DNA of 64,000 nucleotides from NCBI RefSeq assembly GCF_001677475.2, contig NZ_CP015229.1; one strand, given 5' to 3'. The notes beneath the pieces are model-generated. The model was given only the letters and a program-made list of their open reading frames with translations. It ran no database searches and was not told the origin of the DNA. The translations under genes were made by a program, and so were the position numbers. Below, one piece after another: positions 3,209-48,569 of the stretch. The DNA comes from Escherichia coli (lineage in GTDB: Bacteria; Pseudomonadota; Gammaproteobacteria; Enterobacterales; Enterobacteriaceae). The stretch's first letter is position 1; every line of letters starts with the position of its first letter.

Positions 3209-4183
3209 ATGACAAAATTACAACTTAAGTACCGGGAGTTAAAAATTATCTCGGTAATCGCTGCCAGTGAAAATATCAGCCATGCCGCGACTGTACTTGG
3301 CATCGCACAGGCCAACGTCAGCAAATATCTTGCTGATTTTGAATCAAAAGTAGGTTTAAAAGTCTTTGACCGAACCACCCGGCAACTGATGCTCACACCT
3401 TTTGGTACCGCGCTGTTGCCATACATCAATGACATGCTGGACAGAAACGAGCAGCTTAATAATTTTATTGCAGATTATAAGCATGAGAAACGTGGTCGGG
3501 TCACTATCTATGCACCAACCGGCATAATTACCTATTTATCCAAACATGTAATCGATAAAATTAAAGATATCGGTGATATCACCTTATCGCTAAAAACCTG
3601 CAATCTTGAGCGTAATGCCTTTTATGAAGGCGTCGAATTTCCCGATGATTGTGATGTTTTAATCAGCTACGCTCCACCAAAAGATGAATCGCTGGTTGCC
3701 AGTTTTATTACGCAATATGTCGTAACCGCTTATGCCAGCCAGCGCTATCTTGAGAAACATCACATTAGCCGTCCTGACGAACTCGAACATCACTCCTGTA
3801 TTTTGATCGACTCAATGATGATCGACGACGCGAATATCTGGCGCTTCAACGTCTCCGGGAGTAAAGAGGTGCGGGATTATCGTGTGAAGGGAAATTACGT
3901 TTGCGACAACACGCAATCGGCGCTGGAGCTGGCACGAAATCACCTGGGGATTGTGTTTGCGCCAGACAAAAGTGTGCAGAGCGATCTGCAAGACGGCACG
4001 CTGGTGCCCTGCTTTCAGCACCCGTATGAATGGTGGCTGGATCTGGTGGCTATCTTCCGTAAACGGGAATACCAGCCCTGGCGGGTCCAGTATGTGCTGG
4101 ATGAAATGCTGCGTGAAATTCGCCACCAGCTTGCTCAGTCGCAGCAACTGCGGCCTGAACAAGCGGCGGAAAGCGAAGATTAA
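3209..4183 (+). CDS. yiaU: LysR-family transcriptional regulator YiaU
   Basis: 324-aa ORF with N-terminal HTH (…[38 protein letters not shown]…); divergent from yiaT, ATG at 3209. Confidence 0.85.
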
Positions 4184-5316
4184 TGATCGAGATAAAGGTA
4201 ATGCACCCAGCTGGTCATGCGTAATAACACTTTGCGCATCACCGAGACATGGCTGAAATGATCGGAGTAGACCGCCACCTGGGCGTAAATACCGTCTGGT
4301 AAAGCGCTCAAATCAGTATGCTCATCCAGTTCAATGGTCGCGATAACGCCATCTGAACCCGGCGCTGTGTTTAACGTCTGTAAGGTACCGGTCGACTGAT
4401 AAGCTCCACCGGGAACAGCTGGACTAATGGCTGCCAGCTTACCGCTGAATACCTTACCTGGCAGAGCATTAAACACCACTTCCGCATCGTCACCAGGAGC
4501 CAGTCGCAGCAAGGAGTTCTGACGGAACTGCGCCACGATTTGTCGTTTCTGATCGGGTATAAACACCATCACCGGACGTAGCGGCAGCGACGCGGCATAG
4601 GTACCCGGACGAATCAGGACCTGGGCCACGTAACCATCGCTCGGCGCACGCACTATCGTCTGCTCAAGGTTATATTTTGCTTCCGCGAGCTGCGCTTTCA
4701 GGCTGGCGATTAGAGAATGTTCACCCAACACCAGGCTATCCAGCTGGCTCTGGACCTGTTTTTGTTCCGCCGCCGATGACTTTACGGAGGCTTCCTGCGC
4801 CAGATAATTTTGCCGCGCCACATCAATATCGCGTTCTGAAAACGGGTTTACTTTCGCCTGGCTGCCGCGTGCGTAACGCTGATACTCTTTAGCGAATTTA
4901 TCCCGCGTGGCCTTTGCCTGCTGAGTATTCGCCGCCATCTCATCTAACTCTGCGCCCAACGCCCGCTGTTTATGTTCTGCGGTAACGATATCCGCCATCA
5001 GCCGATCCACCCGCGCCTGATAACGCGTCGGGTCCAGTCGAAAAAGCACCTCGCCTTTTTTAATCAGCGTATTTTTCTTATCCGTCACTTCAATCACCAC
5101 GCCTGTCACCTGTGGGACAACAGGGATGGAAATAACCGCTTTTTGCGCTTTAAAGGTATACGGATGGTTATAGTTCATTAACAGAATTAAACCGCTGACA
5201 ATAAATATTCCCCCCAGGGCCGCTGTGGGAATGGTCCATTTATTTACAGGAATTTTGAAGATCTTAAACATTGCCCATGCGAAAGCCACATAGGTCAAGA
5301 TAATCAGTAAATCCAT
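4180..5316 (-). CDS. yiaV: HlyD-family periplasmic adaptor (membrane-fusion) protein YiaV
   Basis: 378-aa ORF; N-terminal TM helix, coiled-coil middle, barrel-sandwich/biotinyl-like C-terminal region; ATG at 5316 lies 5 nt after the yiaW stop. Confidence 0.85.
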
Positions 5317-5321
5317 AAGTA

Positions 5322-5645
5322 TTACTCGGCAGAAGAGGATTTGATGTCGGCGAGCTGTTTCTCCAGCCCGGCAATACGCTGTTGTAGTTGCACAACGGAG
5401 GAGTCATGGTTTTGCATTCCCCATCCCCGCTCCGGGCGGTAAAGCGTGGCCCAAATCCACAAAAATGGCCAGATAACATGCAGCGTAAAAAGACTCACCC
5501 AACCAGCGACATGAATGGCGTCGGCATGAGGATGATTACGTTTTTTAGCAATCAGGTAGGGAATATCATGTAAAATAATAATCCCATAGAATATCACCAG
5601 AAATACAAAAATAAGCACTCCCAGTGCAAAATAATCCAGGAACAT
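5322..5645 (-). CDS. yiaW: Small inner-membrane protein YiaW (DUF3302-like)
   Basis: Track ORF 5322..5675; I choose ATG at 5645 ([13 protein letters not shown]…, 107 aa) with GAGGG upstream; two predicted TM helices plus a C-terminal coiled-coil tail. Confidence 0.8.
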
Positions 5646-6066
5646 ATTTCCCTCAGAGAATATAAAAAAGAACAATTAACGCATATTATGAAATGCCATG
5701 ATGCAGTGCAATTTCCTTATTTATATAACGACATATTGTTTTTTATATACTTTCTGAAGTGTGCTGCCTGGCTTTTCAGCAGGTCGAGGCTTATCATATT
5801 GAAATAATGGAACTATTGACAAAACTAATGAATAACTCCAGTAAAACATCCACAGTACAGATAAAGCGTATTAAACCTTCAATTATCTACCGTTTATTGC
5901 TGATTGGCCTCGGAACACCAATGGTGATTTACGGCCTGGTTCGCCCGCTCACCATCGAAACGCGAGATTAAACTCCTGGCAAAACACGCCCCAGAAACGC
6001 ACTTCTGTTGGCGTAGTCTGGGTTATTGCGCACGTAGGTTTAAAACGTAAATTGTAACAAAGTGCG

Positions 6067-13171: not shown

Positions 13172-13241
13172 GCCGAGTCCTTTGTGCGAGGAAAAATATC
13201 AGTATGGCTCAGGCTCGCGCAAAACACAGGTGACATAAGTC

Positions 13242-17421: not shown

Positions 17422-18570
17422 ATGAAAGCATTACATTTTGGCGCAGGTAATATCGGTCGTGGCTTTATCGGTAAACTGCTGGCAGACGCGGGTATCCAAC
17501 TGACGTTTGCCGATGTCAATCAGGTGGTACTTGATGCCCTGAATGCCCGTCATAGCTATCAGGTTCATGTGGTCGGTGAAACCGAGCAGGTAGATACCGT
17601 TTCCGGCGTCAATGCCGTCAGCAGCATTGGTGATGATGTCGTTGATCTGATTGCTCAGGTTGATTTAGTCACTACCGCCGTTGGTCCGGTTGTGCTGGAA
17701 CGTATTGCCCCGGCAATCGCCAAAGGGCTGGTGAAACGTAAAGAACAAGGTAATGAATCCCCGCTGAACATCATCGCTTGTGAAAACATGGTCCGCGGCA
17801 CCACACAGCTGAAAGGCCATGTGATGAACGCCCTGCCGGAAGATGCCAAAGCGTGGGTAGAAGAACACGTTGGCTTTGTTGATTCCGCCGTTGACCGCAT
17901 CGTGCCGCCTTCGGCTTCTGCAACCAACGATCCGCTGGAAGTGACGGTAGAAACATTCAGCGAATGGATTGTCGATAAAACTCAGTTCAAAGGCACGCTG
18001 CCAAACATTCCTGGTATGGAGTTAACCGACAACCTGATGGCGTTTGTCGAACGTAAACTCTTCACCCTGAACACGGGTCATGCTATAACCGCGTACCTCG
18101 GAAAACTGGCCGGTCATCAGACCATTCGTGACGCTATTCTCGACGAGAAAATCCGCGCGGTGGTTAAAGGTGCGATGGAAGAAAGTGGTGCAGTATTGAT
18201 CAAGCGCTACGGCTTTGACGCTGACAAGCATGCGGCGTACATCCAGAAAATCCTCGGCCGTTTCGAGAACCCGTATCTGAAAGATGATGTAGAGCGCGTA
18301 GGCCGTCAGCCGCTGCGTAAACTGAGTGCTGGCGACCGTCTGATCAAGCCACTGCTGGGTACGCTGGAATACGGCCTTCCGCACAAGAATCTGATTCAGG
18401 GGATTGCTGGTGCAATGCACTTCCGCAGTGAAGATGATCCGCAGGCTCAGGAGCTGGCAGCACTGATCGCTGACAAAGGCCCGCAGGCGGCGCTGGCACA
18501 GATTTCCGGTCTTGATGCCAACAGCGAGGTTGTATCCGAGGCGGTAACCGCTTATAAAGCAATGCAATAA
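17422..18570 (+). CDS. mtlD: Mannitol-1-phosphate 5-dehydrogenase
   Basis: Track ORF starts at 17239 inside the REP region; conserved start is ATG 17422 ([17 protein letters not shown]… NAD-binding motif), 382 aa. Confidence 0.95.
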
Positions 18571-19157
18571 TGGTGGACCAGGCGCAGGACACCCTGCGCC
18601 CGAATAACAGATTGTCAGATATGCAGGCAACAATGGAACAAACCCAGGCCTTTGAAAACCGTGTGCTTGAGCGTCTGAATGCTGGCAAAACCGTGCGAAG
18701 CTTTCTGATCACCGCCGTCGAGCTTTTGACCGAGGCGGTAAATCTTCTGGTGCTTCAGGTATTCCGCAAAGACGATTACGCGGTGAAGTATGCTGTAGAA
18801 CCGTTACTCGACGGCGACGGTCCGCTGGGCGATCTTTCTGTGCGTTTAAAACTCATTTACGGGTTGGGTGTCATTAACCGCCAGGAATACGAAGATGCGG
18901 AGCTACTGATGGCATTGCGTGAAGAGCTAAATCACGACGGCAACGAGTACGCGTTTACCGATGATGAAATCCTTGGACCCTTTGGTGAACTGCATTGCGT
19001 GGCGGCGTTACCACCGCCGCCACAGTTTGAACTTGCAGACGCCAGTTTGTATGCAATGCAAATTCAGCGTTACCAACAGGCTGTGCGATCAACAATGGTC
19101 CTTTCACTGACAGAGCTGATTTCCAAAATCAGCTTAAAAAAAGCCTTTCAAAAGTAA
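18570..19157 (+). CDS. mtlR: Mannitol operon repressor
   Basis: 195-aa ORF; ATG overlaps the mtlD TAA (taATGg). Confidence 0.9.
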   Translation: MVDQAQDTLRPNNRLSDMQATMEQTQAFENRVLERLNAGKTVRSFLITAVELLTEAVNLLVLQVFRKDDYAVKYAVEPLLDGDGPLGDLSVRLKLIYGLGVINRQEYEDAELLMALREELNHDGNEYAFTDDEILGPFGELHCVAALPPPPQFELADASLYAMQIQRYQQAVRSTMVLSLTELISKISLKKAFQK

Positions 19158-19167
19158 GTACTTTCGC

Positions 19168-19377
19168 TTACTTCTCCTCTACCTGTTTCGGCCGATAAAG
19201 CCGACGATAATACTCCAGACGTTGTAGATATAACGGCACGCTTTCATCAGGTATTCCGGACGGAATCGCGTTACGGGGAGGTAGTTTTTTCAGATACTCC
19301 CGGAACGCCTGGCTGGATGCCATGAAATCTACGGCTTTATCGATAAGAAGCGGAACGTTTTCACCTAATTTGCCCAT
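19168..19377 (-). CDS. yibT: Small protein YibT
   Basis: 69-aa ORF ([39 protein letters not shown]…) convergent with mtlR. Confidence 0.75.
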
Positions 19378-19660
19378 GATGATATCTCCGAATTACCCCG
19401 CGCCGGGAATGCGCGGCCGCCAATTTTAGTTTAGATCCCGGTATAAATGACATTAAGGAAAACGTGCTCAATCCTCAATAATCATCCGCTTCTGTTAATT
19501 ATCTTTTTTCTATAAATTTCTTAGTTAATCAACAAATTGCGTGCTTTTTAAGCAAGTTAATGATTACGTTATAGAACTATTGCAATGTCATCAGTTGTGA
19601 ACAAAGCACCTGGTCGCGCATACTAGGGGCTATAAATTTATCTTTATCAGAAGTCATCAC

Positions 19661-20023
19661 ATGAAAGAAGTCGAAAAAAACGAAATCAAACGTCTCAGCG
19701 ATCGTCTGGACGCCATCCGTCACCAGCAGGCCGATCTGTCGCTGGTTGAAGCCGCAGACAAATATGCCGAACTGGAAAAAGAGAAAGCTACGCTGGAAGC
19801 TGAAATTGCCCGCCTGCGTGAAGTTCATAGCCAGAAACTCAGCAAAGAAGCACAAAAGCTGATGAAGATGCCGTTCCAGCGTGCGATTACCAAAAAAGAA
19901 CAAGCCGATATGGGTAAGCTGAAGAAGAGTGTCCGTGGGTTAGTCGTAGTGCATCCGATGACCGCACTGGGTCGTGAAATGGGTCTGCAAGAGATGACCG
20001 GGTTCTCAAAGACAGCGTTTTAA
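19661..20023 (+). CDS. yibL: DUF2810-family protein YibL
   Basis: 120-aa ORF ([42 protein letters not shown]…). Confidence 0.85.
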
Positions 20024-20048
20024 CCCTCTTACCTGTATATCTCCCTCA

Positions 20049-20074
20049 CATCCCGCGTTTCTAAATGCGGGATG
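20049..20074 (+). terminator. Candidate stem-loop downstream of yibL
   Basis: Perfect 8-bp stem catcccgc/gcgggatg with a 10-nt loop, 26 nt after the yibL stop; T-rich stretch follows only after ~20 nt. Confidence 0.35.
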
Positions 20075-20513
20075 CAACAAATATCCTCCTCTTTTTCCTC
20101 TGTTACCTCGTAGAGTCTACTTTTTACCAATGGCACTAAATCTGAAAATGCATTCAGTAAAAGGTTTGGTTCGACGCCTAAAAATGGAAGATATCATTCA
20201 TAAAATAAAACTTTTGCCGTTATTTTTTCCATCTACATTCTAAAAACTCACCCAAAACATTTATTGTGTGAATATTAAATGAAAGCTATTTTTCTGCTTT
20301 AAATGCAGTGTTTGACATCTGATAACCCTCCTCATTAAAATCCGCCTCCCTAACACAATTAAACAATTTTAAAACTTAATAAATAATTTTCATAACAAAT
20401 ATATTCGCAACATTCATAAAGCCAGCCGTATAAATCGCAAAAGCATCAACCACAAATGGACACATCCCTTAGACCGCGTTGGTATCAGGGATGATATGTA
20501 AGGATAACTTTAT

Positions 20514-21197
20514 ATGAAAGTGAATAAATTATTGATAAGCGTCCTGGCGGCTTCGACAATACTGATGCTGTCAGGTTGTGATTACGTCGAAAAAACGAAA
20601 GTCGTTGATGAACTCACAAAACAACAAGAAGAACAAAAGGCCAGAATTGATCAACTCGAAAAACGATTAGAACAAGAAACCAAAAAGACAAACACCATTG
20701 AAAAACAAAGCATTAGTCTGATAAACAGTACAAAGCTGCTGGCTCAGGTAGTGAAAGAGATTAAGCATCAGCAAGATACATTTGTCTTTACTGAATTTAA
20801 CCCCGATCAAACAAAATATTTCATTTTAAATAACGGTTCGGTAGGTATTGCCGGCAGGGTGTTATCTGTTGAAGCAATAGAAAATGGCAGTGTTATTCAT
20901 ATGTCATTGGCCAATTTATTAAGTGTTCCCGTATCAAATATTGGTTTTCATGCCACCTGGGGCGGTGAAAGACCGGGTGATCAAAAAGAATATGCCAAAT
21001 GGCAACAACTGCTATTTAGCACCAACATGAACTCCACGCTGAAATTATTACCAGGTCAATGGCAAGACATTAACTTGACGTTAAAAGGGGTGTCTCCCAA
21101 CAACCTGAAATACCTGAAGTTGGCTATTAATATGCAGAATATCAACTTCGACAACCTTCCACCTGCTGATAACCGGCAGAAAAAAAGCAAAAAATAA
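20514..21197 (+). CDS. Inner-membrane lipoprotein, SadB-like putative helper of trimeric autotransporter biogenesis
   Basis: 227 aa; signal peptide with lipobox LSGC then Asp at +2 (C22-D23, inner-membrane retention); charged coiled-coil segment (QQEEQKARIDQLEKRLEQETKK); 43 bp upstream of the adhesin gene on the same strand; AAGGA 9 nt before the ATG. Function assigned by analogy with Salmonella sadB-sadA. Confidence 0.7.
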   Translation: MKVNKLLISVLAASTILMLSGCDYVEKTKVVDELTKQQEEQKARIDQLEKRLEQETKKTNTIEKQSISLINSTKLLAQVVKEIKHQQDTFVFTEFNPDQTKYFILNNGSVGIAGRVLSVEAIENGSVIHMSLANLLSVPVSNIGFHATWGGERPGDQKEYAKWQQLLFSTNMNSTLKLLPGQWQDINLTLKGVSPNNLKYLKLAINMQNINFDNLPPADNRQKKSKK

Positions 21198-21240
21198 ATG
21201 CAGTCATTGCACTTATATCAAGGAATAGAGAGCAACAACA

Positions 21241-24200
21241 ATGAACAAAATTTTTAAAGTTATCTGGAACCCTGCGACGGGAAGTTACAGCGTCGCCAGC
21301 GAAACGGCAAAAAGCCGTGGAAAGAAGAGCGGTCGCAGCAAGCTGTTAATTTCTGCGTTGGTTGCCGGTGGGTTGCTGTCGTCGTTCGGGGCGAGTGCTT
21401 CTGTCAGTCTTGATGGTGGTACATATTCTGATGGCACCGAACTTACTGATGCATGGATTGCTATTGGTAAAGGTGCGAAAGCTTCCTCTGTAGGCGGTAG
21501 CACAGCAAGTATTTCTATTGGGGTAAATGCAATCTCTGCTGCTGGGGCTACTGCAGTGGGTTATAACAGTAATGCTACTGGACAAAGTTCAGTATCAATG
21601 GGGCAGCTATCGAAAGCCACAGGGAGCAGGGGGGTTGCTATCGGCAGTGGAGCTAGTGCCATTGGCGACTATACAGTTGCATTAGCGGTTGGCTCCAGTG
21701 CTAGCGGTGAGAGTGCAGTGGCAATAGGTCAAGGTTCCGGAGCCAAAAATAAAGGTAGTGTTGCGTTAGGTAACAGAGCGTCATCATTAGGAGAAAAATC
21801 GGTAGCACTAGGGGTAGACAGTAAGGCCACTGGTGACGATAGCCTGGCATTAGGTAGAAACGCCTTGGGCAATAGCACAGGTTCCATTGCAATGGGTGCC
21901 GCAAGCGAAGCCAATGGATTATATAGTTTGGCATTAGGCGCAAGCAGCGTAGCTAACGCGGACAATACCGTTGCGCTCGGATATGGTGCCAATGCAGCCA
22001 AAGCTGGAGCAATGGCTTTCGGTCAGGCAGGAAAGGCAGATGGTGTAAATTCTATTGCGCTGGGTAATAAAAGTCAGTCAAGCGGCGAAAACAGTATTGT
22101 GCTTGGACAAGAAAGCTATGCTGGTAGTGAAAAAAGTATTGCGATTGGTAGCCTGTCCAACGTAACCGGTGTTAACTCCGTTGCTCTGGGCACAGAGTCT
22201 ACTGCCGTGGAAGATAATACTGTTTCAGTAGGTAACGACACGCTGCAGCGTAAAATTGTCCATATGGGAAAAGGCGATATTAGCAGTACCAGTACTGATG
22301 CCATCAATGGTTCACAGCTTTATGATATCAGTAAGTCAGTTGCAGACCGTCTGGGCGGCGGTGCCTCCGTGAGTACTGCCGGGGTTGTTAACGCCCCTAA
22401 CTACAAACTGCAAAGTGGTAACTTTAATAATGTTGGCGACGCATTAAAGGGTCTTGATGATAATACGTTGCAATGGGACTCGCTTAAAAAAGTCTACAGT
22501 GCAAAACACGGTTCCGATGCCACCAGCAAAATCACCAACGTTACGGCGGGTGAGCTGAACGCATCCAGTACCGACGCCGTTAACGGTTCTCAGTTGAAAA
22601 CCACTAACGACAATGTGGCAACCAACACCACTAATATCAGCAACCTGACCGGCGAAGTTGCTAACAACACCACCAATATCACTAACCTGACGAATGATGT
22701 TGCCGCCAACACCACCAGTATCACCAACCTGGCTGATACGGTGACTAACCTTGGTGAAGATGCGCTGAAATGGGATGACACCGCTGGCGTATTCACTGCT
22801 GCACACGGCACCGAAGCCACCAACAAAATCACCAATGTTACGGCAGGTGAGCTGACGGAGACCAGTACCGATGCGGTTAACGGTTCTCAGTTGAAAACCA
22901 CTAACGATAACGTGGCAACCAACACCACCAGTATCACCAACCTGACTGATACAGTGACTAACCTTGGTGCCGACGCGCTGGCATGGGATGACGCCTCAGG
23001 TGCATTCACCGCCAAACACGGCACCGAAGCCACCAACAAAATCACTAACGTTACGGCAGGTGAACTGACGGAGACCAGTACCGATGCCGTTAACGGTTCT
23101 CAGTTGAAAACCACTAACGATAACGTGGCAACCAACACCACCAATATCAGCAACCTGACCGGCGAAGTTGCTAACAACACCACCAACATCACTAACCTGA
23201 CGAATGATGTTGCCGCCAACACCACCAGTATCACCAACCTGGCTGATACGGTGACTAACCTTGGTGCCGACGCGCTGGCATGGGATGACGCCTCAGGTGC
23301 ATTCACCGCCAAACACGGCACCGAAGCCACCAACAAAATCACTAACGTTACGGCGGGTGAGCTGACGGAGACCAGTACTGATGCCGTTAACGGTTCTCAG
23401 TTAAAAACCACTAACGACAATGTGGCAACCAACACCACCAACATCACCAATCTGGCTGATACGGTGAACAACCTCGGTGAAGATGCGCTGAAATGGGATG
23501 ACGCCGCAAGCGCATTCACCGCTGCACACGGCACCGAAGCCACCAGCAAAATCACTAACGTCACCGCTGGAACAATCTCGTCTACCAGTACCGACGCTGT
23601 TAACGGTGGGCAACTCTTTAGCTTAAGTGATTCACTGGCAGACTATTTTGGCGGTAACGCCTCGGTTGATGAAAACGGTGTATTTACTGGCCCGTCCTAC
23701 ACCATCGGTAGCAACAGCTACGATAACGTAGGTGATGCGCTGGCGGCGATTAACACCTCCTTTAGCACTTCACTGGGCGACGCTCTGCTGTGGGATGAAA
23801 CGGCAAGTGCATTCAGCGCCGGCCACGGTGGCAATGCCAGCAAAATTACCAATGTCGCAAACGGTACTATTTCTGAAACCAGCACCGATGCCATCAATGG
23901 TGGGCAACTCTACGGTGTGAGCAACTCTGTTGTTGATGCCCTGGGCGGTGGCGCCGCAGTAAATGCTGACGGTAGCATCAGTGCGCCGACGTACTCCATT
24001 GCTGATACCGATTACAATAACGTCGGTGATGCTCTGGACGCGATCGACTCAACCCTGGATGATGCGCTGCTCTGGGACGCAACCGCCGGTGAAAATGGTG
24101 CGTTCAGCGCCAGCCGCGATGGCAAAGCCAGCGTAATCACTAATGTTGCTAATGGTGATATTTCTGAAACCAGTACTGATGCAATTAATGGTTCACAGTT

Positions 24201-25905
24201 GTTCGCCACCAACACGTTGATCAATCAGCAAAATGAGATCATCAACCAGATTGCCGGTAATACCAGCACAGACTACATCGAAGAGAACGGTGCGGGTCTG
24301 AACTATGCGCGTACTAATGACACCGGCTTAACCTTTATTGATGCGAGCGCATCAGGTACTGGCGCTACAGCGGTGGGTTATAACGCTGTCGCTTCCGGCG
24401 AAAGCAGTGTCGCAATTGGTCAGAATAGCAGCAGCAGCGTTGATACTGGTATCGCGCTGGGTAGCGAATCCGTCTCCAGCCGTGTGATTGTTAAAGGTTC
24501 TCGTAACACCAGCGTAACCGAAGAAGGCGTTGTGATTGGTTACGACACCACTGACGGCGAACTGCTTGGTGCATTGTCGATTGGCGATGATGGTAAGTAC
24601 CGTCAGATCATCAACGTTGCTGATGGTACTGAATCCCATGACGCCGTGACTGTACGCCAGTTGCAAAACGCCATTGGTGCGGTCGCCACTACGCCGACCA
24701 AGTACTACCATGCCAACTCAACGGAAGAAGATTCACTGGCGGTAGGTACTGACTCGCTGGCGATGGGCGCGAAAACTATCGTCAATGGTAATGCGGGTAT
24801 TGGTATCGGCCTGAATACTCTGGTTCTGGCAGATGCCATCAACGGTATTGCTATCGGTTCTAACGCACGCGCCAACCATGCAAACAGTATTGCAATGGGT
24901 AATGGTTCTCAGACCACTCGCGGCGCTCAGACTGGCTACACCGCCTACAACATGGACGCGCCGCAGAACTCTGTCGGTGAGTTCTCTGTCGGCAGTGAAG
25001 ACGGTCAACGTCAGATCACTAATGTCGCGGCGGGTTCGGCAGATACCGATGCCGTTAACGTTGGTCAGTTGAAAGTGACGGACGCACAGGTTTCCCAGAA
25101 CACCCAGAGCATTACTAACCTGAATACTCAGGTAACGAATCTGGATACCCGCGTCACCAATATCGAAAACGGTATTGGCGATATCGTAAGCACCGGTAGC
25201 ACCAAGTACTTCAAGACCAACACCGATGGCGTAGATGCTAACGCGCAGGGTAAAGACAGTGTTGCGATTGGCTCTGGCTCTATTGCTGCCGCTGATAACA
25301 GCGTTGCGCTGGGTACTGGCTCTGTGGCAAACGAAGAAAATACGATCTCCGTAGGTTCTTCCACTAACCAACGCCGTATCACCAACGTTGCCGCTGGTAA
25401 AAATGCTACTGACGCGGTTAACGTTGCGCAGTTGAAGTCTTCCGAAGCAGGCGGCGTGCGCTATGACACCAAAGCTGACGGTTCTGTTGATTACAGCAAC
25501 ATCACTCTCGGCGGTGGTAATGGCGGAACGACTCGCATCAGCAACGTTTCCGCTGGCGTTAACAACAACGACGCGGTGAACTACGCGCAGTTGAAGCAAA
25601 GCGTGCAGGAAACGAAGCAATACACCGATCAGCGCATGGTTGAGATGGATAACAAACTGTCCAAAACCGAAAGCAAGTTGAGCGGTGGTATCGCTTCTGC
25701 AATGGCGATGACCGGTCTGCCGCAGGCTTACACGCCAGGTGCCAGCATGGCCTCCATTGGTGGCGGTACATACAACGGTGAATCGGCTGTTGCTTTAGGT
25801 GTGTCGATGGTGAGCGCCAACGGTCGTTGGGTCTACAAATTACAAGGTAGTACCAATAGCCAGGGTGAATACTCCGCCGCACTTGGTGCCGGTATTCAGT
25901 GGTAA
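21241..25905 (+). CDS. upaG: Trimeric autotransporter adhesin (YadA-like), UpaG/EhaG family
   Basis: 1554-aa ORF; extended signal peptide [21 protein letters not shown]…; YadA-like head repeats (…SVALG.NS.A.G…); long Thr/Asn-rich repetitive stalk; C-terminal membrane-anchor domain ending …AALGAGIQW. Confidence 0.9.
22561..23580 (+). repeat. Intragenic tandem duplication in the adhesin stalk (2 x ~510 bp)
   Basis: 22561-23070 and 23071-23580 align co-linearly; the first ~300 bp of each copy differ at only a few positions, the remainder is ~85% similar. Further divergent stalk repeats with 210-300 bp spacing extend to ~24240. Confidence 0.7.
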
Positions 25906-25937
25906 TGACCCATTAACAAATGGGTAAACGCCAAATT

Positions 25938-26020
25938 GCCTGATGCGCTACGCTTATCAGGCCTACAGGGGATTCTGCACATTCCTGTAGGCCGGATAAG
26001 GCGTTCACGCCGCATCCGGC
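25938..26020. repeat. REP pair (BIME) downstream of the adhesin gene
   Basis: gcctgatgcgctacgcttatcaggcctac (25938-25966) and gtaggccggataaggcgttcacgccgcatccggc (25987-26020). Confidence 0.65.
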
Positions 26021-26106
26021 AAGATAAGACGCACCAGGTCAATGGTCTAAGGGCAATTCTCTGACGGGGATTGCCCTTTTCTTTACCAGACATCTCCCTA
26101 TCAAAA

Positions 26107-26249
26107 AATTGGCCCTACCAATTCTTCGCTTATCTGACCACTGGTTCACAGTTCCCCAATTAAAACTCACATTAACGTTGCCAATACAAAACATTTAGTT
26201 AACTATTCATTGTCATTATCCCTACACAACAAAATTGGCAGTGCCACTT
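26107..26249 (+). promoter_or_regulatory. lldPRD control region with two LldR-type operators
   Basis: Palindrome AATTGGccctaCCAATT at 26107-26123 and related AATTGGcagtgCCActT at 26233-26249, ~200 and ~75 bp upstream of lldP ATG 26322. Confidence 0.5.
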
Positions 26250-26321
26250 TTACACAACGTGTGACAAGGAGATGAGCAACAGACTCATTACACGATGTGC
26301 GTGGCCTCCAGGAGACCTGCA

Positions 26322-27977
26322 ATGAATCTCTGGCAACAAAACTACGATCCCGCCGGGAATATCTGGCTTTCCAGCCTGATAGCATCGCTTCCCATCCTGT
26401 TTTTTTTCTTTGCGCTTATTAAGCTCAAACTAAAAGGCTATGTCGCCGCTACATGGACAGTCGTTATCGCTCTGACTGTCGCGCTATTGTTCTACAAAAT
26501 GCCGGTCGCCAATGCGCTGGCCTCAGTGGTTTATGGCTTCTTCTACGGTTTGTGGCCCATCGCGTGGATCATTATTGCAGCGGTGTTCGTCTATAAGATC
26601 TCGGTGAAAACCGGACAGTTTGACATCATCCGCTCGTCTATTCTTTCAATAACCCCTGACCAGCGCCTGCAAATGCTGATCGTCGGTTTCTGTTTCGGCG
26701 CATTTCTCGAAGGTGCCGCAGGCTTTGGCGCACCGGTAGCAATTACCGCCGCATTGCTGGTCGGGCTGGGCTTTAAACCGCTGTACGCCGCCGGGCTGTG
26801 CCTGATTGTTAACACCGCGCCGGTGGCATTTGGCGCGATGGGTATTCCGATTCTGGTTGCCGGACAGGTAACAGGCATCGACAGCTTTGAGATTGGCCAG
26901 ATGGTGGGACGTCAGCTACCGTTTATGACCATTATCGTGCTGTTCTGGATCATGGCGATTATGGACGGCTGGCGGGGTATCAAAGAGACGTGGCCTGCGG
27001 TCGTGGTCGCGGGAGGCTCGTTTGCCATCGCACAGTACCTTAGCTCTAACTTTATTGGGCCGGAACTGCCGGACATTATCTCTTCGCTGGTATCGCTGCT
27101 CTGCCTGACACTGTTCCTCAAACGTTGGCAGCCGGTGCGCGTTTTCCGCTTCGGCGATCTGGGCGCATCGCAAGTTGATATGACGCTGGCTCATACCGGT
27201 TACACCGCAGGTCAGGTGTTACGCGCCTGGACACCGTTCCTGTTCCTGACCGCCACCGTAACGCTGTGGAGTATTCCGCCGTTTAAAGCCCTGTTCGCTT
27301 CGGGTGGTGCGCTGTATGAATGGGTGATCAATATTCCGGTGCCGTACCTCAATAAACTGGTTGCCCGTATGCCGCCAGTGGTCAGCGAAGCGACAGCGTA
27401 TGCCGCCGTGTTTAAGTTCGACTGGTTCTCTGCCACCGGTACCGCCATTCTTTTTGCTGCCCTGCTCTCGATTGTCTGGCTGAAGATGAAACCATCTGAC
27501 GCTATCAGCACCTTCGGCAGCACGCTGAAAGAACTGGCTCTGCCCATCTACTCCATCGGTATGGTGCTGGCGTTCGCCTTTATCTCGAACTATTCCGGAC
27601 TATCATCAACGCTGGCGCTGGCACTGGCGCACACCGGCCATGCATTCACCTTCTTCTCGCCGTTCCTCGGCTGGCTTGGTGTCTTCCTGACCGGATCGGA
27701 TACCTCATCTAACGCCCTGTTCGCCGCCCTGCAAGCCACTGCAGCACAACAAATTGGCGTTTCTGACCTGTTGTTGGTTGCCGCCAACACCACCGGTGGT
27801 GTCACCGGTAAGATGATCTCTCCGCAATCTATCGCTATCGCCTGTGCGGCGGTAGGCCTGGTAGGCAAAGAGTCAGATCTGTTCCGCTTTACCGTCAAAC
27901 ACAGCCTGATCTTCACCTGTATGGTGGGCGTGATTACCACGCTTCAGGCCTACGTCTTAACGTGGATGATTCCGTAA
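26322..27977 (+). CDS. lldP: L-lactate permease
   Basis: Track ORF from 26295; conserved start ATG 26322 ([15 protein letters not shown]…) after AGGAG; 551 aa, multi-TM. Confidence 0.95.
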
Positions 27978-28753
27978 TGATGGTTATACCCAGACGCCTG
28001 TCAGACGAGGTAGCTTCCCGTGTGCGGGCGCTGATTGAAGAACAAAATCTGGAACCGGGCATGAAGTTGCCCGCTGAACGCCAACTGGCGATGCAGCTCG
28101 GCGTGTCGCGTAATTCACTGCGCGAGGCGCTGGCGAAACTGGTGAGTGAAGGTGTGCTTCTTAGTCGTCGCGGTGGCGGGACGTTTATTCGCTGGCGCCA
28201 TGACGTGTGGTCGGAACAAAACATCGTCCAGCCGCTGAAAACGCTAATGGCCGATGATCCGGATTACAGCTTCGATATTCTGGAAGCCCGCTACGCCATT
28301 GAGGCCAGCACCGCCTGGCACGCAGCAATGCGTGCCACACAAGCCGATAAAGAAAAGATACAGCTCTGCTTTGAAGCGACGCTGAGTGAAGACCCGGATC
28401 TCGCCTCGCAAGCGGACGTTCGTTTTCATCTGGCAATTGCCGAAGCCTCACATAACATCGTGCTGCTGCAAACCATGCGCGGTTTCTTTGATGTCCTGCA
28501 ATCTTCAGTGATGCAAAGTCGTCAGCGGATGTATCTGGTGCCGCCCGTTTTTTCGCAACTGACTGAACAGCATCAGGCGGTCATTAACGCCATTTTTGCC
28601 GGTGATGCCGACGGTGCGCGTAAAGCAATGATGTCGCACCTCAGCTTTGTCCACACCACCATGAAACGATTCGATGAAGATCAGGCTCGCCGTGCACGCA
28701 TTACCCGCCTGCCCGGTGAGCATAATGAGCATTCGAGGGAGAAAAACGCATGA
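27977..28753 (+). CDS. lldR: GntR/FadR-family L-lactate regulator
   Basis: Start taken at ATG 27977 ([11 protein letters not shown]…), overlapping the lldP stop by 1 nt, 258 aa; N-terminal wHTH. Confidence 0.9.
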
Positions 28754-29940
28754 TTATTTCCGCAGCCAGCGATTATCGCGCCGCAGCGCAACGCATTTTG
28801 CCGCCGTTCCTGTTCCACTATATGGATGGTGGTGCATATTCTGAATACACGCTGCGCCGCAACGTGGAGGATTTGTCAGAAGTGGCGCTGCGCCAGCGTA
28901 TTCTGAAAAACATGTCCGACTTAAGCCTGGAAACGACGCTGTTTAATGAGAAATTGTCGATGCCAGTGGCGCTGGCTCCGGTGGGTTTGTGCGGCATGTA
29001 TGCGCGTCGCGGCGAAGTTCAGGCAGCCAAAGCGGCTGATGCGCATGGCATTCCGTTTACTCTCTCAACGGTTTCAGTTTGCCCGATTGAAGAAGTCGCT
29101 CCAGCTATCAAACGTCCGATGTGGTTCCAGCTTTATGTGCTGCGCGATCGCGGCTTTATGCGTAACGCACTGGAACGGGCAAAAGCGGCGGGCTGTTCGA
29201 CACTGGTTTTCACCGTGGATATGCCGACGCCAGGCGCACGTTATCGTGACGCACACTCCGGTATGAGCGGCCCGAATGCCGCAATGCGCCGCTACTTGCA
29301 GGCGGTGACGCATCCGCAATGGGCGTGGGATGTCGGCCTGAACGGTCGTCCACATGATTTAGGTAATATTTCGGCTTACCTCGGCAAACCGACCGGACTG
29401 GAAGATTACATCGGCTGGCTGGGGAATAACTTCGATCCGTCCATCTCATGGAAAGACCTTGAGTGGATCCGCGATTTCTGGGATGGCCCGATGGTGATCA
29501 AAGGGATCCTCGACCCGGAAGATGCGCGTGATGCAGTACGTTTTGGTGCTGACGGGATTGTGGTTTCTAACCACGGTGGCCGCCAGCTGGACGGTGTACT
29601 CTCTTCCGCTCGTGCGCTGCCCGCTATTGCGGATGCGGTAAAAGGTGATATCGCCATTCTGGCGGATAGCGGGATTCGTAACGGGCTTGATGTCGTGCGT
29701 ATGATTGCGCTCGGTGCCGACACCGTACTGCTGGGTCGTGCTTTCCTGTATGCGCTGGCAACAGCGGGCCAGGCGGGTGTAGCTAACCTGCTGAATCTGA
29801 TCGAAAAAGAGATGAAAGTGGCAATGACGCTGACTGGCGCGAAATCGATTAGCGAAATTACGCAAGATTCGCTGGTGCAGGGGCTGGATAAAGAGTTGCC
29901 TGCGGCACTGGCTCCGATGGCGAAAGGGAATGCGGCATAG
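28750..29940 (+). CDS. lldD: FMN-dependent L-lactate dehydrogenase
   Basis: 396-aa ORF, alpha-hydroxy acid oxidase family (…[10 protein letters not shown]…). Confidence 0.95.
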
Positions 29941-30011
29941 TTGGGGTGAGGGGAAAAGGCCGTACCAATCACCAATTTTCTGCTATCCTGCCCCCGCACT
30001 AAGGGGGCAGT

Positions 30012-30485
30012 ATGCTAAACATCGTACTTTACGAACCAGAAATTCCGCCAAATACTGGCAACATCATCCGTCTTTGCGCTAATACCGGCTTTCGTCTACA
30101 TATCATCGAACCGATGGGATTTGCCTGGGACGATAAGCGCCTGCGCCGCGCGGGGCTGGACTATCACGAGTTTACCGCCGTTACGCGTCATCATGACTAT
30201 CGCGCGTTCGTCGAAGCCGAAAATCCCCAGCGCCTGTTTGCCCTCACCACGAAAGGTACGCCTGCTCACAGCGCCGTAAGCTATCAGGATGGCGATTATC
30301 TGATGTTCGGCCCGGAAACGCGCGGCCTGCCAGCAAGCATTCTTGATGCCCTGCCCGCTGAACAAAAAATTCGCATTCCAATGGTGCCGGACAGCCGCAG
30401 CATGAACCTGTCCAATGCGGTGTCGGTCGTGGTGTATGAAGCCTGGCGGCAGTTGGGATATCCGGGAGCGGTGTTGAGAGATTAG
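30012..30485 (+). CDS. trmL: tRNA (cytidine/uridine-2'-O)-methyltransferase TrmL
   Basis: 157-aa SPOUT-family ORF ([26 protein letters not shown]…). Confidence 0.9.
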
Positions 30486-30494
30486 TTACGCCAT

Positions 30495-30532
30495 GCCGGA
30501 TAAGATGCGTTATGAACCGCATCGCATCCGGC
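30495..30532. repeat. REP-like hairpin between convergent trmL and cysE
   Basis: gccggataagatgcg…cgcatcgcatccggc imperfect palindrome. Confidence 0.5.
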
Positions 30533-30546
30533 ATAATCACAGGACA

Positions 30547-31368
30547 TCAGATCCCATCCCCATATTCAAACGTATGGTTAATACCGTTGAAATGCTGATC
30601 CATGTCCATTGACGGTTTATCGCTGTCTGGTTTACCGACAATGCGTGCCGGAACGCCAGCGGCGGTGGTATGCGGCGGCACCGGTTGCAGCACCACGGAA
30701 CCTGCGCCAATCTTCGCGCCGCGCCCAACTTCAATATTGCCGAGGATTTTCGCGCCCGCGCCAATCATCACACCTTCACGAATTTTCGGGTGACGGTCAC
30801 CACCAGATTTACCCGTACCGCCAAGCGTGACAGATTGCAGTATCGACACATCGTTTTCAATCACCGCCGTTTCACCAACGACGATGCCTGTCGCGTGGTC
30901 GAGCATGATACCGCGACCGATTTTTGCTGCCGGGTGAATATCCACCTGGAACGTCACAGAAACCTGGTTTTGCAGAAAGATTGCCAGTGCGCGGCGGCCC
31001 TGATTCCACAGCCAGTGACCGATGCGATAGGCCTGCAAGGCATGAAAACCTTTCAGGTATAACAGTGGGGTTGAGTATTTATCGACTGCCGGGTCGCGGG
31101 TACGTACGGCCTGAATATCGCAGGCCGCAGAAGCGATCATTTCCGGGTCGGCGGCGTAGGCTTCTTCAACCACTTCGCGGATAGCAATGGCAGGCATAAT
31201 TGGCGATGACAGCTTGTTCGCCAGCATGTAGCTCAGTGCACTGCCAAGGTTTTCGTGCTTGAGTAGCGTTGCGTGGTAAAAACTGGCCAGCATTGGCTCA
31301 CAGTCCGCCAGCGTTCTGGCTTCCGCTTTAATATTGTTCCAGACAATTTCCAGTTCTTCACACGACAT
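30547..31368 (-). CDS. cysE: Serine O-acetyltransferase
   Basis: 273-aa ORF with hexapeptide-repeat C-terminal region. Confidence 0.95.
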   Translation of the reverse strand: MSCEELEIVWNNIKAEARTLADCEPMLASFYHATLLKHENLGSALSYMLANKLSSPIMPAIAIREVVEEAYAADPEMIASAACDIQAVRTRDPAVDKYSTPLLYLKGFHALQAYRIGHWLWNQGRRALAIFLQNQVSVTFQVDIHPAAKIGRGIMLDHATGIVVGETAVIENDVSILQSVTLGGTGKSGGDRHPKIREGVMIGAGAKILGNIEVGRGAKIGAGSVVLQPVPPHTTAAGVPARIVGKPDSDKPSMDMDQHFNGINHTFEYGDGI

Positions 31369-43553: not shown

Positions 43554-44513
43554 ATGCGGGTTTTGATCGTTAAAACATCGTCGATGGGCGATGTTCTCCA
43601 TACGTTGCCCGCACTCACTGATGCCCAGCAGGCAATCCCAGGGATTAAGTTTGACTGGGTGGTGGAAGAAGGGTTCGCACAGATTCCTTCCTGGCACGCC
43701 GCCGTTGAGCGAGTTATTCCTGTGGCAATACGTCGCTGGCGTAAAGCCTGGTTCTCGGCCCCCATAAAAGCTGAACGCAAAGCGTTTCGTGAAGCGCTAC
43801 AAGCAGAGAACTATGACGCAGTTATCGACGCTCAGGGGCTGGTAAAAAGCGCGGCGCTGGTGACGCGTCTGGCGCATGGCGTAAAGCATGGAATGGACTG
43901 GCAAACCGCTCGCGAACCTTTAGCCAGCCTGTTTTACAATCGTAAACATCATATTGCAAAACAGCAGCACGCCGTAGAACGCACCCGCGAACTGTTTGCC
44001 AAAAGTCTGGGCTATAGCAAACCGCAAACCCAGGGCGATTATGCTATTGCACAGCATTTCCTGACGAACCTGCCTACAGATGCTGGCGAATATGCCGTAT
44101 TTCTTCATGCGACGACCCGTGATGATAAACACTGGCCGGAAGAACACTGGCGAGAATTGATTGGTTTACTGGCTGATTCAGGAATACGGATTAAACTTCC
44201 GTGGGGCGCGCCGCATGAGGAAGAACGGGCGAAACGACTGGCGGAAGGATTTGCTTATGTTGAAGTATTGCCGAAGATGAGTCTGGAAGGCGTTGCCCGC
44301 GTGCTGGCCGGGGCTAAATTTGTAGTGTCGGTGGATACGGGGTTAAGCCATTTAACGGCGGCACTGGATAGACCGAATATCACGGTTTATGGACCAACCG
44401 ATCCGGGATTAATTGGTGGGTATGGGAAGAATCAGATGGTTTGTAGGGCTCCGGGGAAAAGTTTAAATAATCTCAACGGTCAAGCAGTTTTGGAAAAGTT
44501 ATCATCATTATAA
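43554..44513 (+). CDS. waaC: LPS heptosyltransferase I
   Basis: 319-aa GT9 ORF. Confidence 0.95.
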   Translation: MRVLIVKTSSMGDVLHTLPALTDAQQAIPGIKFDWVVEEGFAQIPSWHAAVERVIPVAIRRWRKAWFSAPIKAERKAFREALQAENYDAVIDAQGLVKSAALVTRLAHGVKHGMDWQTAREPLASLFYNRKHHIAKQQHAVERTRELFAKSLGYSKPQTQGDYAIAQHFLTNLPTDAGEYAVFLHATTRDDKHWPEEHWRELIGLLADSGIRIKLPWGAPHEEERAKRLAEGFAYVEVLPKMSLEGVARVLAGAKFVVSVDTGLSHLTAALDRPNITVYGPTDPGLIGGYGKNQMVCRAPGKSLNNLNGQAVLEKLSSL

Positions 44514-44522
44514 AGGTAAAAC

Positions 44523-45788: not shown

Positions 45789-45795
45789 ACAAGTT

Positions 45796-45822
45796 TAAGA
45801 AGTGAGTTTTAACTCACTTCTT
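45796..45822. terminator. Hairpin at the convergent waaL / waaU junction
   Basis: Inverted repeat aagaagtgagtt / aactcacttctt; overlaps the waaU stop, so acts for both converging operons if functional. Confidence 0.4.
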
Positions 45823-46887: not shown

Positions 46888-46966
46888 TTTTATACCATAA
46901 TATTTTAGTTTCAGGATGATTAATTAGCATAAGAATCAGTTGAAGCTTTATATTCCATTTTTTTTC

Positions 46967-47782
46967 TTATCTTATCTTATCCTGTGACTTTGACTCTTCT
47001 GAACTGATATCGAGAGGCTTAATAAATGGAATTACATCGTAAGAAATAGCCGTATCATCTGACAAATTATAAATATTAATATCTTCTACATTATCACGCA
47101 TAAAACGGAAAAATGGCAAGATTTTAAACAAATCCCTACTCAATTCCGAGGGCATAGGATTGTTACTTTCGTCATAGAAACGAGTACAACTACCAGTTAA
47201 ATCAAGACCAGAACAAATAATCCGCGCATACTTCAGCGAATAGGCTATTTGGATTGCAGCAAAGGCAACGGTATGGCATGAACAATAACCGAGATTAATA
47301 TCCTTGCAAAAGCCAACCAGACGACCTTTTTTAGAAAAAGGTACAGAAATCAGGAGCTCTTTATGAATTCGGCTCAAAATATTAAACTTAATCTTCTTAA
47401 TCAATCCACCTTTTTCTCTGCGGTAAAATGAACGTAGTACCAAGCAGTTTTGAAGGATGTACCGTTTATCTTCTTCAGAAGCATGTTCATAAACATCAAC
47501 ATTTACGATGGTATAACGACTTCTCTGGCTAAATTTATAAAAATCATCACGTCGTTGATGTAAAAAGCGAACATCAGTAAGTACATAAATATACGGAATA
47601 ATATTATGACTTAATAGATATTGCGCAGAACCATTGACAGCAATAACATCCCTTGTCTGCAGCACTGACAATGGTGTTTTTTGCGATGTGGGGCCGGAAA
47701 GAAAAATAATAACATCATCAGACGTTTTACTTTCTATCAGGTTCTCAACATCTTTTTTGCCAATGTATCTAATATTCTTCAT
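46967..47782 (-). CDS. waaZ: LPS core biosynthesis protein WaaZ
   Basis: 271-aa ORF in the K-12-type position between waaY and waaU; start codon not verified. Confidence 0.8.
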   Translation of the reverse strand: MKNIRYIGKKDVENLIESKTSDDVIIFLSGPTSQKTPLSVLQTRDVIAVNGSAQYLLSHNIIPYIYVLTDVRFLHQRRDDFYKFSQRSRYTIVNVDVYEHASEEDKRYILQNCLVLRSFYRREKGGLIKKIKFNILSRIHKELLISVPFSKKGRLVGFCKDINLGYCSCHTVAFAAIQIAYSLKYARIICSGLDLTGSCTRFYDESNNPMPSELSRDLFKILPFFRFMRDNVEDINIYNLSDDTAISYDVIPFIKPLDISSEESKSQDKIR

Positions 47783-48552: not shown

Positions 48553-48569
48553 AATAAACCAGTTAAGTG

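Follow-up and report, generated by a model that had tools for sequence, protein, structure and literature searches.

The window analysed here, a 64,000-nucleotide stretch of Escherichia coli contig NZ_CP015229.1, carries two genes between yibL and lldP. In the program-made list of open reading frames (ORFs), yibL occupies 19661–20023 (+) and is followed by an AT-rich leader (20024–20513, +; 490 bp, 34.7% GC), which extends from the yibL stop codon to the start of a homologue of sadB that encodes 227 amino acids (20514–21197, +; ORF list and homology to PDB 4c47). A 43-bp spacer that holds a AAGGAATAGAGAG ribosome-binding region and no terminator (21198–21240, +) separates sadB from the gene for a trimeric autotransporter adhesin of 1,554 residues (21241–25905, +), the positional orthologue of SadA, EhaG and UpaG. 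Downstream of the adhesin lies lldP, with a K-12-equivalent start at 26322 and a longest-ORF start at 26295. A preliminary description had placed a 227-residue lipoprotein gene and a 1,554-residue YadA-like gene at this site, behind an AT-rich region of about 490 bp; the gene coordinates proved exact in the ORF list and the measured length agrees. Base composition is uneven: the window as a whole has 49.1% GC, the adhesin gene 51.5%, the leader and sadB 31–38%, and the core of the leader (20100–20460) 31.3%. An Rfam scan returned no match within the locus.

In K-12 MG1655, yibL (b3602) and lldP (b3603) are adjacent, with a 371-bp spacer between them, and sequence comparison with MG1655 confirmed that the junction is empty there, as had been anticipated. 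Homology halts at 20023 and restarts at 25963, leaving 5,939 bp of the window (20024–25962) absent from K-12 and 11 unrelated bases at the K-12 deletion junction. The locus had been drawn as 20024–26050 and as ending in a BIME; the BIME is present, but the right edge needed correction, because the segment absent from K-12 stops at 25962, within the BIME, and a hairpin near 26078 is the most likely end of the transcription unit.

The product of the upstream gene matches the crystal structure of Salmonella SadB (PDB 4c47) at E = 5e-70, with residues 23–227 aligned to 3–207 of 207, and is 50% identical to the crystallised LT2 protein over 205 residues. It comprises a signal peptide with LSGC, a variable coiled coil (about residues 25–88) and a conserved beta domain (about residues 89–215). 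The lipobox reads L-S-G-C22-D23-Y24, and C22, D23 and Y24 are invariant in eight alleles; an aspartate at position +2 of a lipoprotein is a signal for inner-membrane retention. It is the signal peptide and the coiled coil that hold the divergence among the eight alleles, and a view of SadB as hypervariable throughout was softened, given that the C-terminal beta domain is conserved. A Pfam-A search of SadB found no significant family, the top match (DivIC, E = 0.014) being coiled-coil noise, and in NCBIfam the protein fell under the curated cutoff, with a weak match to PRK11530. In RefSeq, the orthologues that E. coli genomes carry at this site are labelled either 'SadB/YajI family lipoprotein' or 'DUF3251', and the latter name also stands on the NCBI entries of the protein itself. 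The spacer between sadB and the adhesin gene is 43–44 bp long in all eight loci compared and nearly invariant across genera, and a scan found no terminator-like sites in it; in Salmonella, the sadB–sadA spacer is 44 bp (Grin et al. 2014, PMC3953254). By analogy, the two genes are probably co-transcribed. Fractionation together with mass spectrometry has located SadB in the inner membrane, and SadB raises the display of SadA (PMC3953254). The SadB encoded here is predicted to form a trimer that enhances surface display of the adhesin, as is known for Salmonella SadB.

The large ORF was expected to carry YadA-type domains, and ESPR, YadA_head, YadA_stalk and YadA_anchor domains were all found. 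An ESPR spans residues 1–48 (21241–21384, +; PF13018, E = 1.8e-15), with signal cleavage predicted after A51-S52-A53. The N-terminal YadA-like head repeats, residues 99–333 (21535–22239, +), gave 12 YadA_head matches, six of them at E ≤ 0.001. Beyond them, stalk modules of 297 bp and 213 bp are repeated as a 510-bp duplication at 90% identity (22492–23607, +); these modules encode 99 and 71 residues and contain a coiled coil, a DALxWD motif and a neck. The membrane-proximal stalk and head modules, residues 1123–1493 (24607–25719, +), match solved SadA fragments: 2yo0 (E = 3.5e-141, residues 1123–1402), 2yo3 (E = 9.8e-91, residues 1277–1480), 2ynz and 2yo2. The protein ends in a YadA-like membrane anchor, residues 1494–1554, which with the stop codon occupies 25720–25905 (+; PF03895, E = 2.4e-19), and the Hia anchor structures 3emo and 2gr7 match residues 1467–1554. 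In total, the passenger yielded about 20 YadA_head matches (10 at E ≤ 0.001) and 14 YadA_stalk matches in Pfam, counts that include matches in a 100-residue overlap twice, because the domain scans ran as two overlapping halves. A motif scan identified 11 neck, 7 DALL-type, 3 FGG-type and 2 HANS motifs. The adhesin scored far under the NCBIfam cutoffs for the Vomp, Ata, EmaA, BimA and YadA models, and the NCBIfam matches of both proteins are family-level resemblance, not membership. Judged from its sequence, with an anchor, an ESPR and a head/neck/stalk passenger, the adhesin is a type Vc trimeric autotransporter, and it would form a homotrimer if it behaves as the homologous SadA fragments do in their trimeric crystal structures. 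Antisense ORFs of up to 295 residues inside the adhesin gene were discounted as side effects of its length and repetitiveness.

The adhesin varies between strains in both length and head sequence. Variation in length had been proposed, and genomes with an identical SadB indeed have adhesins of 1,455, 1,554, 1,582 and 1,848 residues. Close relatives differ by −99, +28 and +283 residues at residues 560–570, which corresponds to whole stalk modules, and one of them (L006) is identical save for the clean in-frame loss of a single 99-residue module. These whole-module differences among near-identical genomes pinpoint where fibre length changes. The head region (residues 1–360) is the most divergent part of the passenger, at 44–71% identity between alleles: 44–55% with E. 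coli, E. fergusonii, E. albertii and Salmonella, 60% with Pseudocitrobacter and 71% with an E. ruysiae-type allele. The final 450 residues are 90–98% identical in all alleles. Because the head diverges in this way, ligand specificity is not transferable from characterised proteins; extracellular matrix (ECM) binding, aggregation and biofilm formation by this adhesin may be expected in general terms from its characterised homologues EhaG and UpaG.

The leader can hardly be aligned from one allele class to another, with 53% identity per column and only three short conserved blocks in an alignment of eight loci (eight genomes across three genera). A TCTGAAAA box (20141–20148, +), about 170 bp upstream of the −35 element, is invariant in the eight genomes but for one column, in which C replaces T in Pseudocitrobacter, and is a candidate regulator site. 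A predicted sigma-70 promoter, TTGACA-18 nt-TAAAAT (20312–20341, +), matches the consensus at 11 of 12 positions and would start transcription near 20348–20350, giving a 5′ untranslated region of about 165 nt. The argument for this promoter is conservation across genera, since TTGAC and TAnnAT are kept in all eight loci, Salmonella and Pseudocitrobacter included, and the promoter scan itself returned no more sites than expected in shuffled sequence (8 in total against 8.2). An AAGGA ribosome-binding site (20500–20504, +) lies 9 nt upstream of the sadB ATG; AGGA is invariant in 8/8 loci and the leading base is C in Pseudocitrobacter. Just 3′ of the yibL stop, an inverted repeat with 12-bp arms and without a T-run, CATCCCGCGTTT..AAATGCGGGATG (20049–20074, +), may serve as a yibL 3′ hairpin, and the eight-genome alignment places a CCGC..GCGG-type hairpin at the same position in most alleles. 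Leader ORFs of 24–37 residues were set aside in view of the leader's lack of conservation from allele to allele. PMC5012682 names UpaG, at second hand, among H-NS-repressed genes, and H-NS may likewise repress the locus studied here, given that characterised homologue and the AT-richness of the leader (31–35% GC). Together, the conserved promoter and TCTGAAAA box offer an entry point into the regulation of a widespread sadBA adhesin operon.

Downstream of the adhesin gene, the anticipated BIME was recovered as two opposed REP-like palindromes in the intergenic region (25934–26022, no strand assigned), that is, two REP units in inverted orientation, and the right-hand end of the K-12 deletion falls within it, at 25962/25963. 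The REPs of this BIME match the K-12 mtlA–mtlD REP cluster at 78% over 103 bp. The number of REP units is not constant among strains: FDAARGOS_1268 lacks them, O157 has one and the present locus has two. Further on, a hairpin resembling an intrinsic terminator, AAGGGCAAT..ATTGCCCTT followed by TTTTCTTT (26049–26078, +; 9-bp stem and T-run), is also kept in K-12, where it lies downstream of yibL.

We conclude, with a probability of roughly 0.93, that the locus is the known chromosomal sadBA-type operon of the Enterobacteriaceae, comprising in E. coli ehaG/upaG and a sadB homologue. The adhesin is present in 4,154 of 5,426 complete E. coli genomes (about 77%), and the K-12-type junction in 1,261 (about 23%), 1,227 of them at an identity of at least 99%. 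The order mtlADR-yibT-yibL-sadB-adhesin-lldP recurs in E. coli, an E. ruysiae-type genome, E. fergusonii, E. albertii, Salmonella and Pseudocitrobacter. Because the gene order is common across genera and one deletion is common among the genomes that lack it, the locus is ancestral and was lost in one lineage; it is not an inserted island. Consistent with this, the empty junction is sequence-identical, cuts the BIME and leaves 11 unrelated bases, and so looks like a single deletion. That a sadBA operon lies between mtl and lld, with a deletion of about 5 kb in K-12, has already been published (Grin et al. 2014, PMC3953254). The term 'accessory locus' used in the preliminary description thus stands for the absence from K-12 and falls where it implies an insertion, the gene order being common to Escherichia, Salmonella and Pseudocitrobacter. 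Horizontal acquisition of an island by an ancestrally empty yibL–lldP junction could draw on the absence of the locus from K-12, the AT-rich leader and sadB (31–38% GC against 49% for the window) and the REP cluster at the right edge. We nevertheless regard it as highly improbable, because the site and gene order are identical in four Escherichia species, Salmonella and Pseudocitrobacter, the GC content of the adhesin gene is an ordinary 51.5%, and the empty junction exists as one sequence-identical state rather than many. The window contains no tRNA gene, and no integrase or transposase ORF occurs in or beside the locus; more broadly, the features by which a horizontal island is recognised (mobility genes, borders formed by tRNA or direct repeats, and a patchy distribution) were not found there, and Grin et al. 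(PMC3953254) concluded likewise. The operon is therefore real but ordinary, and already known.

Whether this copy of the ancestral operon yields a surface fibre is a separate matter. It might be a decaying or silent remnant that makes none, whether it is permanently silenced or its repeat array has been wrongly assembled: the conditions for native sadBA expression are stated to be unknown (PMC3953254), UpaG is reported as H-NS-repressed (PMC5012682), and assembly errors arise easily in 510-bp repeats that are 90% identical. A near-identical relative (L005) has the adhesin gene split into ORFs of 507 and 921 residues, so inactivation does occur in this lineage. In the copy studied here, however, the 4,665-nt frame is unbroken, the ESPR and anchor are intact, and the L006 allele differs by nothing but its in-frame module loss. 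The promoter, ribosome-binding site, spacer, SadB beta domain and adhesin C terminus are all conserved across genera, and such conservation of signals and domains implies purifying selection. On balance, we consider a non-functional remnant very unlikely.

The diversity of the operon has a further aspect. SadB allele classes are 66–76% identical in amino acid sequence, and two E. coli alleles, at 66%, are no closer to each other than alleles of different genera. The leader and sadB are 97–99% identical to those of strain E69 (a species representative, in which the locus is partial), and the yibL flank next to the locus is only 87–91% identical to that strain; the allele is a rare one, common to the E. 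coli lineage studied here and cryptic Escherichia lineages. Around the locus, a stretch of about 13 kb (window positions 18–31 kb) is 92–96% identical to E. coli, compared with 97–99.9% further out, and yibL and lldP are about 91–93% identical to K-12. The values for yibL and lldP had prompted the idea that the DNA belongs to an Escherichia other than E. coli, which was rejected in view of the 97–99.9% identity of the outer parts of the window to E. coli genomes. Because identity is lowered around the locus, these data suggest that it drives local recombination, like other surface-structure loci. We advance more tentatively, at slightly less than even odds, the idea that sadBA is a hot-spot of surface-antigen diversity, in which deep SadB and head classes persist and pass from one Escherichia species to another through homologous recombination.

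In the mechanism that we propose for the operon, the sigma-70 promoter in the AT-rich leader would most likely drive one transcript over both genes, which would end at the hairpin past the BIME. SadB would be exported, lipidated on Cys22 and held in the inner membrane by the aspartate at +2. There, a periplasm-facing SadB trimer would help to keep three adhesin chains in register and improve their surface display; both location and helper role are proposed by analogy with characterised homologues. The extended signal peptide would direct the adhesin into the Sec pathway and so across the inner membrane, and three C-terminal anchors, each contributing four strands, would assemble with the help of Bam into a 12-stranded outer-membrane barrel. 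The head-neck-stalk passenger would then be threaded out as a long fibre that could bind extracellular matrix and promote aggregation and biofilm formation.

The likeness to the sadB–sadA and EhaG/UpaG loci noted at the outset holds for both genes, through 4c47, the SadA fragments and EhaG at 66%. The closest characterised system is SadB–SadA of Salmonella enterica (STM3690–STM3691), which likewise lies on the chromosome between the mtl and lld operons and shares the two-gene layout with a 43–44-bp spacer. Salmonella SadB has the same lipobox-Cys-Asp, coiled coil and beta domain, and SadA the same ESPR, Ylhead, repeated neck/DALL stalk, HANS heads and YadA anchor. Over the 430 residues nearest the membrane, the adhesin aligns with SadA fragments of known crystal structure, with E values from 1e-91 to 1e-141. 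The differences lie in SadB, which at 50% identity to the LT2 protein diverges mostly within the coiled coil, in the head (44% identical) and in fibre length (2,044 residues in the Salmonella allele versus 1,554 here).

The trimeric autotransporters EhaG and UpaG, the latter from uropathogenic E. coli, were reportedly described by Totsika et al. in 2012. For this group, we compared O157 EhaG and further alleles from E. coli, CFT073 UpaG not being among them. EhaG of O157:H7 is encoded by a positional orthologue between yibL and lldP, with a sadB homologue upstream whose product is 66% identical to SadB here. The adhesins share the same module types and are 66% identical overall (one BLASTP alignment of the whole 1,554-residue protein with EhaG residues 1 to about 1470–1588) and 94% over the final 450 residues. 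By contrast, the head is 51% identical, stalk modules differ in number and order, and the leader is unalignable apart from the promoter and the TCTGAAAA box. PMC5854682 and PMC7312957 state that EhaG and UpaG bind laminin and fibronectin and form biofilm. Among the complete E. coli genomes searched, RefSeq applies 'EhaG' to O157-type alleles and 'YadA-like family protein' to the rest, and the latter is also the NCBI name of the 1,554-residue protein itself. We suggest the labels 'sadB-family lipoprotein' and 'SadA/EhaG/UpaG-type trimeric autotransporter' in place of 'DUF3251' or 'hypothetical protein' and 'YadA-like family protein', a change that matters little beyond annotation. The only other described dedicated helper gene beside a trimeric autotransporter gene belongs to TpgA–AtaA of Acinetobacter. 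TpgA is a widely distributed periplasmic helper with BamE-like and OmpA-like peptidoglycan-binding parts and is not homologous to SadB, whereas SadB is an inner-membrane coiled-coil lipoprotein confined to the Enterobacterales.

Towards its two ends the window is 97–99.9% identical to E. coli genomes and is therefore E. coli. Upstream of yibL (19661–20023), mtlD, mtlR and yibT lie on the minus strand. Downstream of it come an AT-rich leader of 490 bp (34.7% GC; core 31.3% GC), a sadB homologue (20514–21197; 227 aa; 38.3% GC), a 43-bp spacer and an adhesin gene (21241–25905; 1554 aa; 51.5% GC), set in a window of 49.1% GC overall. The adhesin gene is followed by a BIME of two REP palindromes in opposite orientation (about 25934–26022), a hairpin with a T-run (26049–26078) and then lldP, with its K-12-equivalent start at 26322, and lldR. 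The ORF list, composition count and REP and hairpin scans thus recovered in place every element listed in a preliminary description, confirming its observation and supporting its interpretation of the locus.

That description had called the region an accessory locus. In MG1655, a spacer of 371 bp separates yibL (b3602) from the next gene, lldP (b3603), and BLAST homology with the window runs to 20023 and restarts at 25963; the K-12 junction is therefore empty of both genes, as anticipated. K-12 lacks window positions 20024–25962 (5,939 bp), in place of which it carries 11 unrelated bases. On the right, the missing segment ends within the BIME, and the second REP and the terminator hairpin are retained in K-12. 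A deletion of about 5 kb that removes sadB and sadA in E. coli K12 has been described (Grin et al. 2014, PMC3953254). The order mtlADR–yibT–yibL–sadB–adhesin–lldP was found in E. coli O157 and FDAARGOS_1268, in a genome whose SadB is named E. ruysiae, and in E. fergusonii, E. albertii, Salmonella enterica and Pseudocitrobacter. Of 5426 complete E. coli genomes, 4154 contain the conserved 3′ 1.3 kb of the adhesin gene and 1261 the K-12 junction sequence (coverage at least 80%), with at least 99% identity in 1227 matching genomes; these two states cover nearly all complete E. coli genomes. A tRNA search of the 64 kb found no tRNA gene, and the ORF list contains no mobility gene at the locus. Taken together, the conserved gene order, the two junction states and the lack of tRNA or mobility genes indicate that the locus is ancestral and not an insertion: 'accessory' is apt only insofar as a single E. 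coli lineage has lost it, and does not denote a segment gained here.

The allele carried here is a rare one. Over about 18–31 kb, a stretch that takes in mtlR–yibL and lldP–lldR–lldD to either side of the adhesin locus, identity to E. coli genomes is lowered to 92–96%; in places lldP–lldD is nearer to an E. ruysiae-type genome (up to 97.8%). This pattern suggests that the regions flanking a polymorphic surface-protein locus have either diverged with it or been imported (18000–31000). A DNA search of complete RefSeq E. coli genomes did not find the window's sadB allele (best match 76%). The leader and sadB are 97–99% identical to strain E69, a species representative in the genome collection, with only 87–91% identity in the yibL flank immediately to the left, and the proteins that share at least 87% identity with this SadB carry the names E. 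ruysiae, E. marmotae or E. coli. Such a distribution suggests that sadBA may be a diversity hot-spot with allele exchange between species. SadB alleles are 64–76% identical in pairs, and a comparison of two from within E. coli (66%) shows no greater similarity than one between E. coli and Salmonella (66–68%). By contrast, YibL is 99–100% identical among E. coli, E. ruysiae-type and E. albertii genomes, and 96% in E. fergusonii. The SadB divergence sits in the signal peptide and in the coiled coil, with coiled-coil length differences of 3 or 14 residues between alleles, whereas the beta domain is conserved.

Aligning eight leaders from three genera gave only 53% identity per column on average, and three blocks stand out: TCTGAAAA (20141–20148), a TTGACA-N18-TAnnAT candidate promoter (20312–20341) and the AAGGA ribosome-binding site of sadB. 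The candidate promoter reads TTGACA/TAAAAT here, matching 11 of 12 positions. Overall, the promoter scan did no better than on shuffled sequence (8 sites found, 8.2 expected), and we favour this site because of its conservation among leaders, not its scan score. The sadB–adhesin spacer is nearly invariant (43–44 bp in 8 of 8 loci), and a terminator scan found no terminator-like site in it. The most likely arrangement is a single sadB–adhesin transcript, which would begin near 20348 and finish at the 26049–26078 hairpin. Within the predicted 5′ UTR, immediately before the sadB ribosome-binding site, another hairpin (20463–20493) has 13-bp arms (CATCCCTTAGACC..GGTATCAGGGATG); the E. ruysiae-type allele retains its stem, which the other allele classes have lost, and this hairpin could modulate sadB translation.

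Adhesin length varies by strain, as the preliminary description had proposed. Among genomes with identical SadB, adhesin lengths are 1455, 1554 (the window), 1582 and 1848 aa; in a further one the gene is split. The 1455-aa protein equals that of the window minus a clean 99-aa module at residue 570, and the other two carry 28 and 283 additional residues at residue 560. The stalk includes 297-bp and 213-bp modules arranged as a 510-bp duplication (90% identity), and repeats may be mis-resolved in some of these relatives' assemblies. The split gene (comparison locus L005, 10728–15113, GCA_037967675.1) is called as ORFs of 507 and 921 aa over a span that is a multiple of three; its split comes either from a premature stop, making it a pseudogene, or from misassembly of the repeats. 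REP units also differ: comparing window 25906–26050 with loci L003, L004, L011 and L015–L018 from other genomes, we counted none 3′ of the adhesin stop in FDAARGOS_1268, one in O157 and two in the window. In several strains TAAGGGCAA flanks the REP block on both sides, which hints that units are gained or lost at this short repeat.

K-12 has an 8.2-kb RhsA element (rhsA, yibA, yibJ, yibG, yibS, yibW, yibV, yibU) between yibF and yibH; here these flanks lie about 32 bp apart (13208–13241), so the element is absent. A second, diverged yibH–yibI pair (4182–5657), encoding an HlyD-family secretion protein and a DUF3302 protein, has about 69% DNA identity to the orthologous yibHI, which it precedes by about 9 kb. 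The sole Rfam match in the window is a JUMPstart element (RF01707, 53.1 bits, 55758–55796, minus strand), upstream of rfaQ in the LPS-core waa cluster as judged by the gene order of strain 18KM2445. The waa region and its neighbours (44000–64000) are 99.2–99.3% identical to a few best-matching E. coli genomes and only 90–95% identical to most E. coli records (4473 of 5426). Similarity to K-12 falls to 88–95% from 44 kb and stops at 47586, where the K-12 sequence used for comparison runs out; this fits an LPS-core allele over waaL–waaU that differs from the K-12 copy.

Both proteins belong to a known pair. The 227-aa protein matches the Salmonella SadB crystal structure 4c47 (E=5e-70, residues 23–227, 50% identity), and its lipobox ends at Cys22, followed by Asp23. 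Because Asp directly after the lipobox Cys prevents a lipoprotein from leaving the inner membrane (the +2 rule), the homologue is predicted to be held there, in line with its earlier description as an inner-membrane lipoprotein. Pfam-A gave no significant family for it and NCBIfam nothing above cutoff; RefSeq names its positional E. coli orthologues 'DUF3251 domain-containing protein' or 'SadB/YajI family lipoprotein', and NCBI entries for the protein itself read DUF3251 or 'hypothetical protein'. The 1554-aa protein, domain-scanned as two halves, proved to be the YadA-like trimeric autotransporter adhesin expected, with an ESPR signal (E=1.8e-15), numerous YadA_head and YadA_stalk repeats in the passenger and, at residues 1494–1554, a YadA_anchor (E=2.4e-19). 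A motif scan found 11 neck, 7 DALxWD, 3 FGG-type and 2 HANS motifs (daTAA nomenclature). Its best structure matches are SadA fragments (2yo0, E=3.5e-141; 2yo3, E=9.8e-91; also 2ynz and 2yo2), followed by the trimeric autotransporters BpaC, AtaA, Hia, UspA1 and YadA.

In Salmonella, Shigella and Escherichia, sadB (STM3690) and sadA (STM3691) form an operon between the mtl and lld operons, with a 44-bp spacer in Salmonella (PMC3953254). SadB was shown experimentally to be a trimeric, lipidated inner-membrane protein whose co-expression increases both the display of SadA at the surface and its resistance to protease; the conditions for native sadBA expression were reported as unknown (PMC3953254). 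A 2026 preprint reports SadB homologues in Enterobacterales only. By analogy with the Salmonella work, the adhesin here would be secreted with the SadB homologue as helper. Secondary sources state that EhaG and UpaG are adhesins that bind laminin and fibronectin and promote biofilm (PMC5854682, PMC7312957), and another includes UpaG among H-NS-repressed genes (PMC5012682). EhaG of O157:H7 aligns with our adhesin end to end at 66% identity, rising to 94% in the last 450 residues and falling to 51% in the first 360. The proposed resemblance to the Salmonella sadB–sadA and EhaG loci is thus upheld by the structure matches, this alignment and the shared position, and the locus is a textbook, already known positional orthologue of sadBA/ehaG/upaG.
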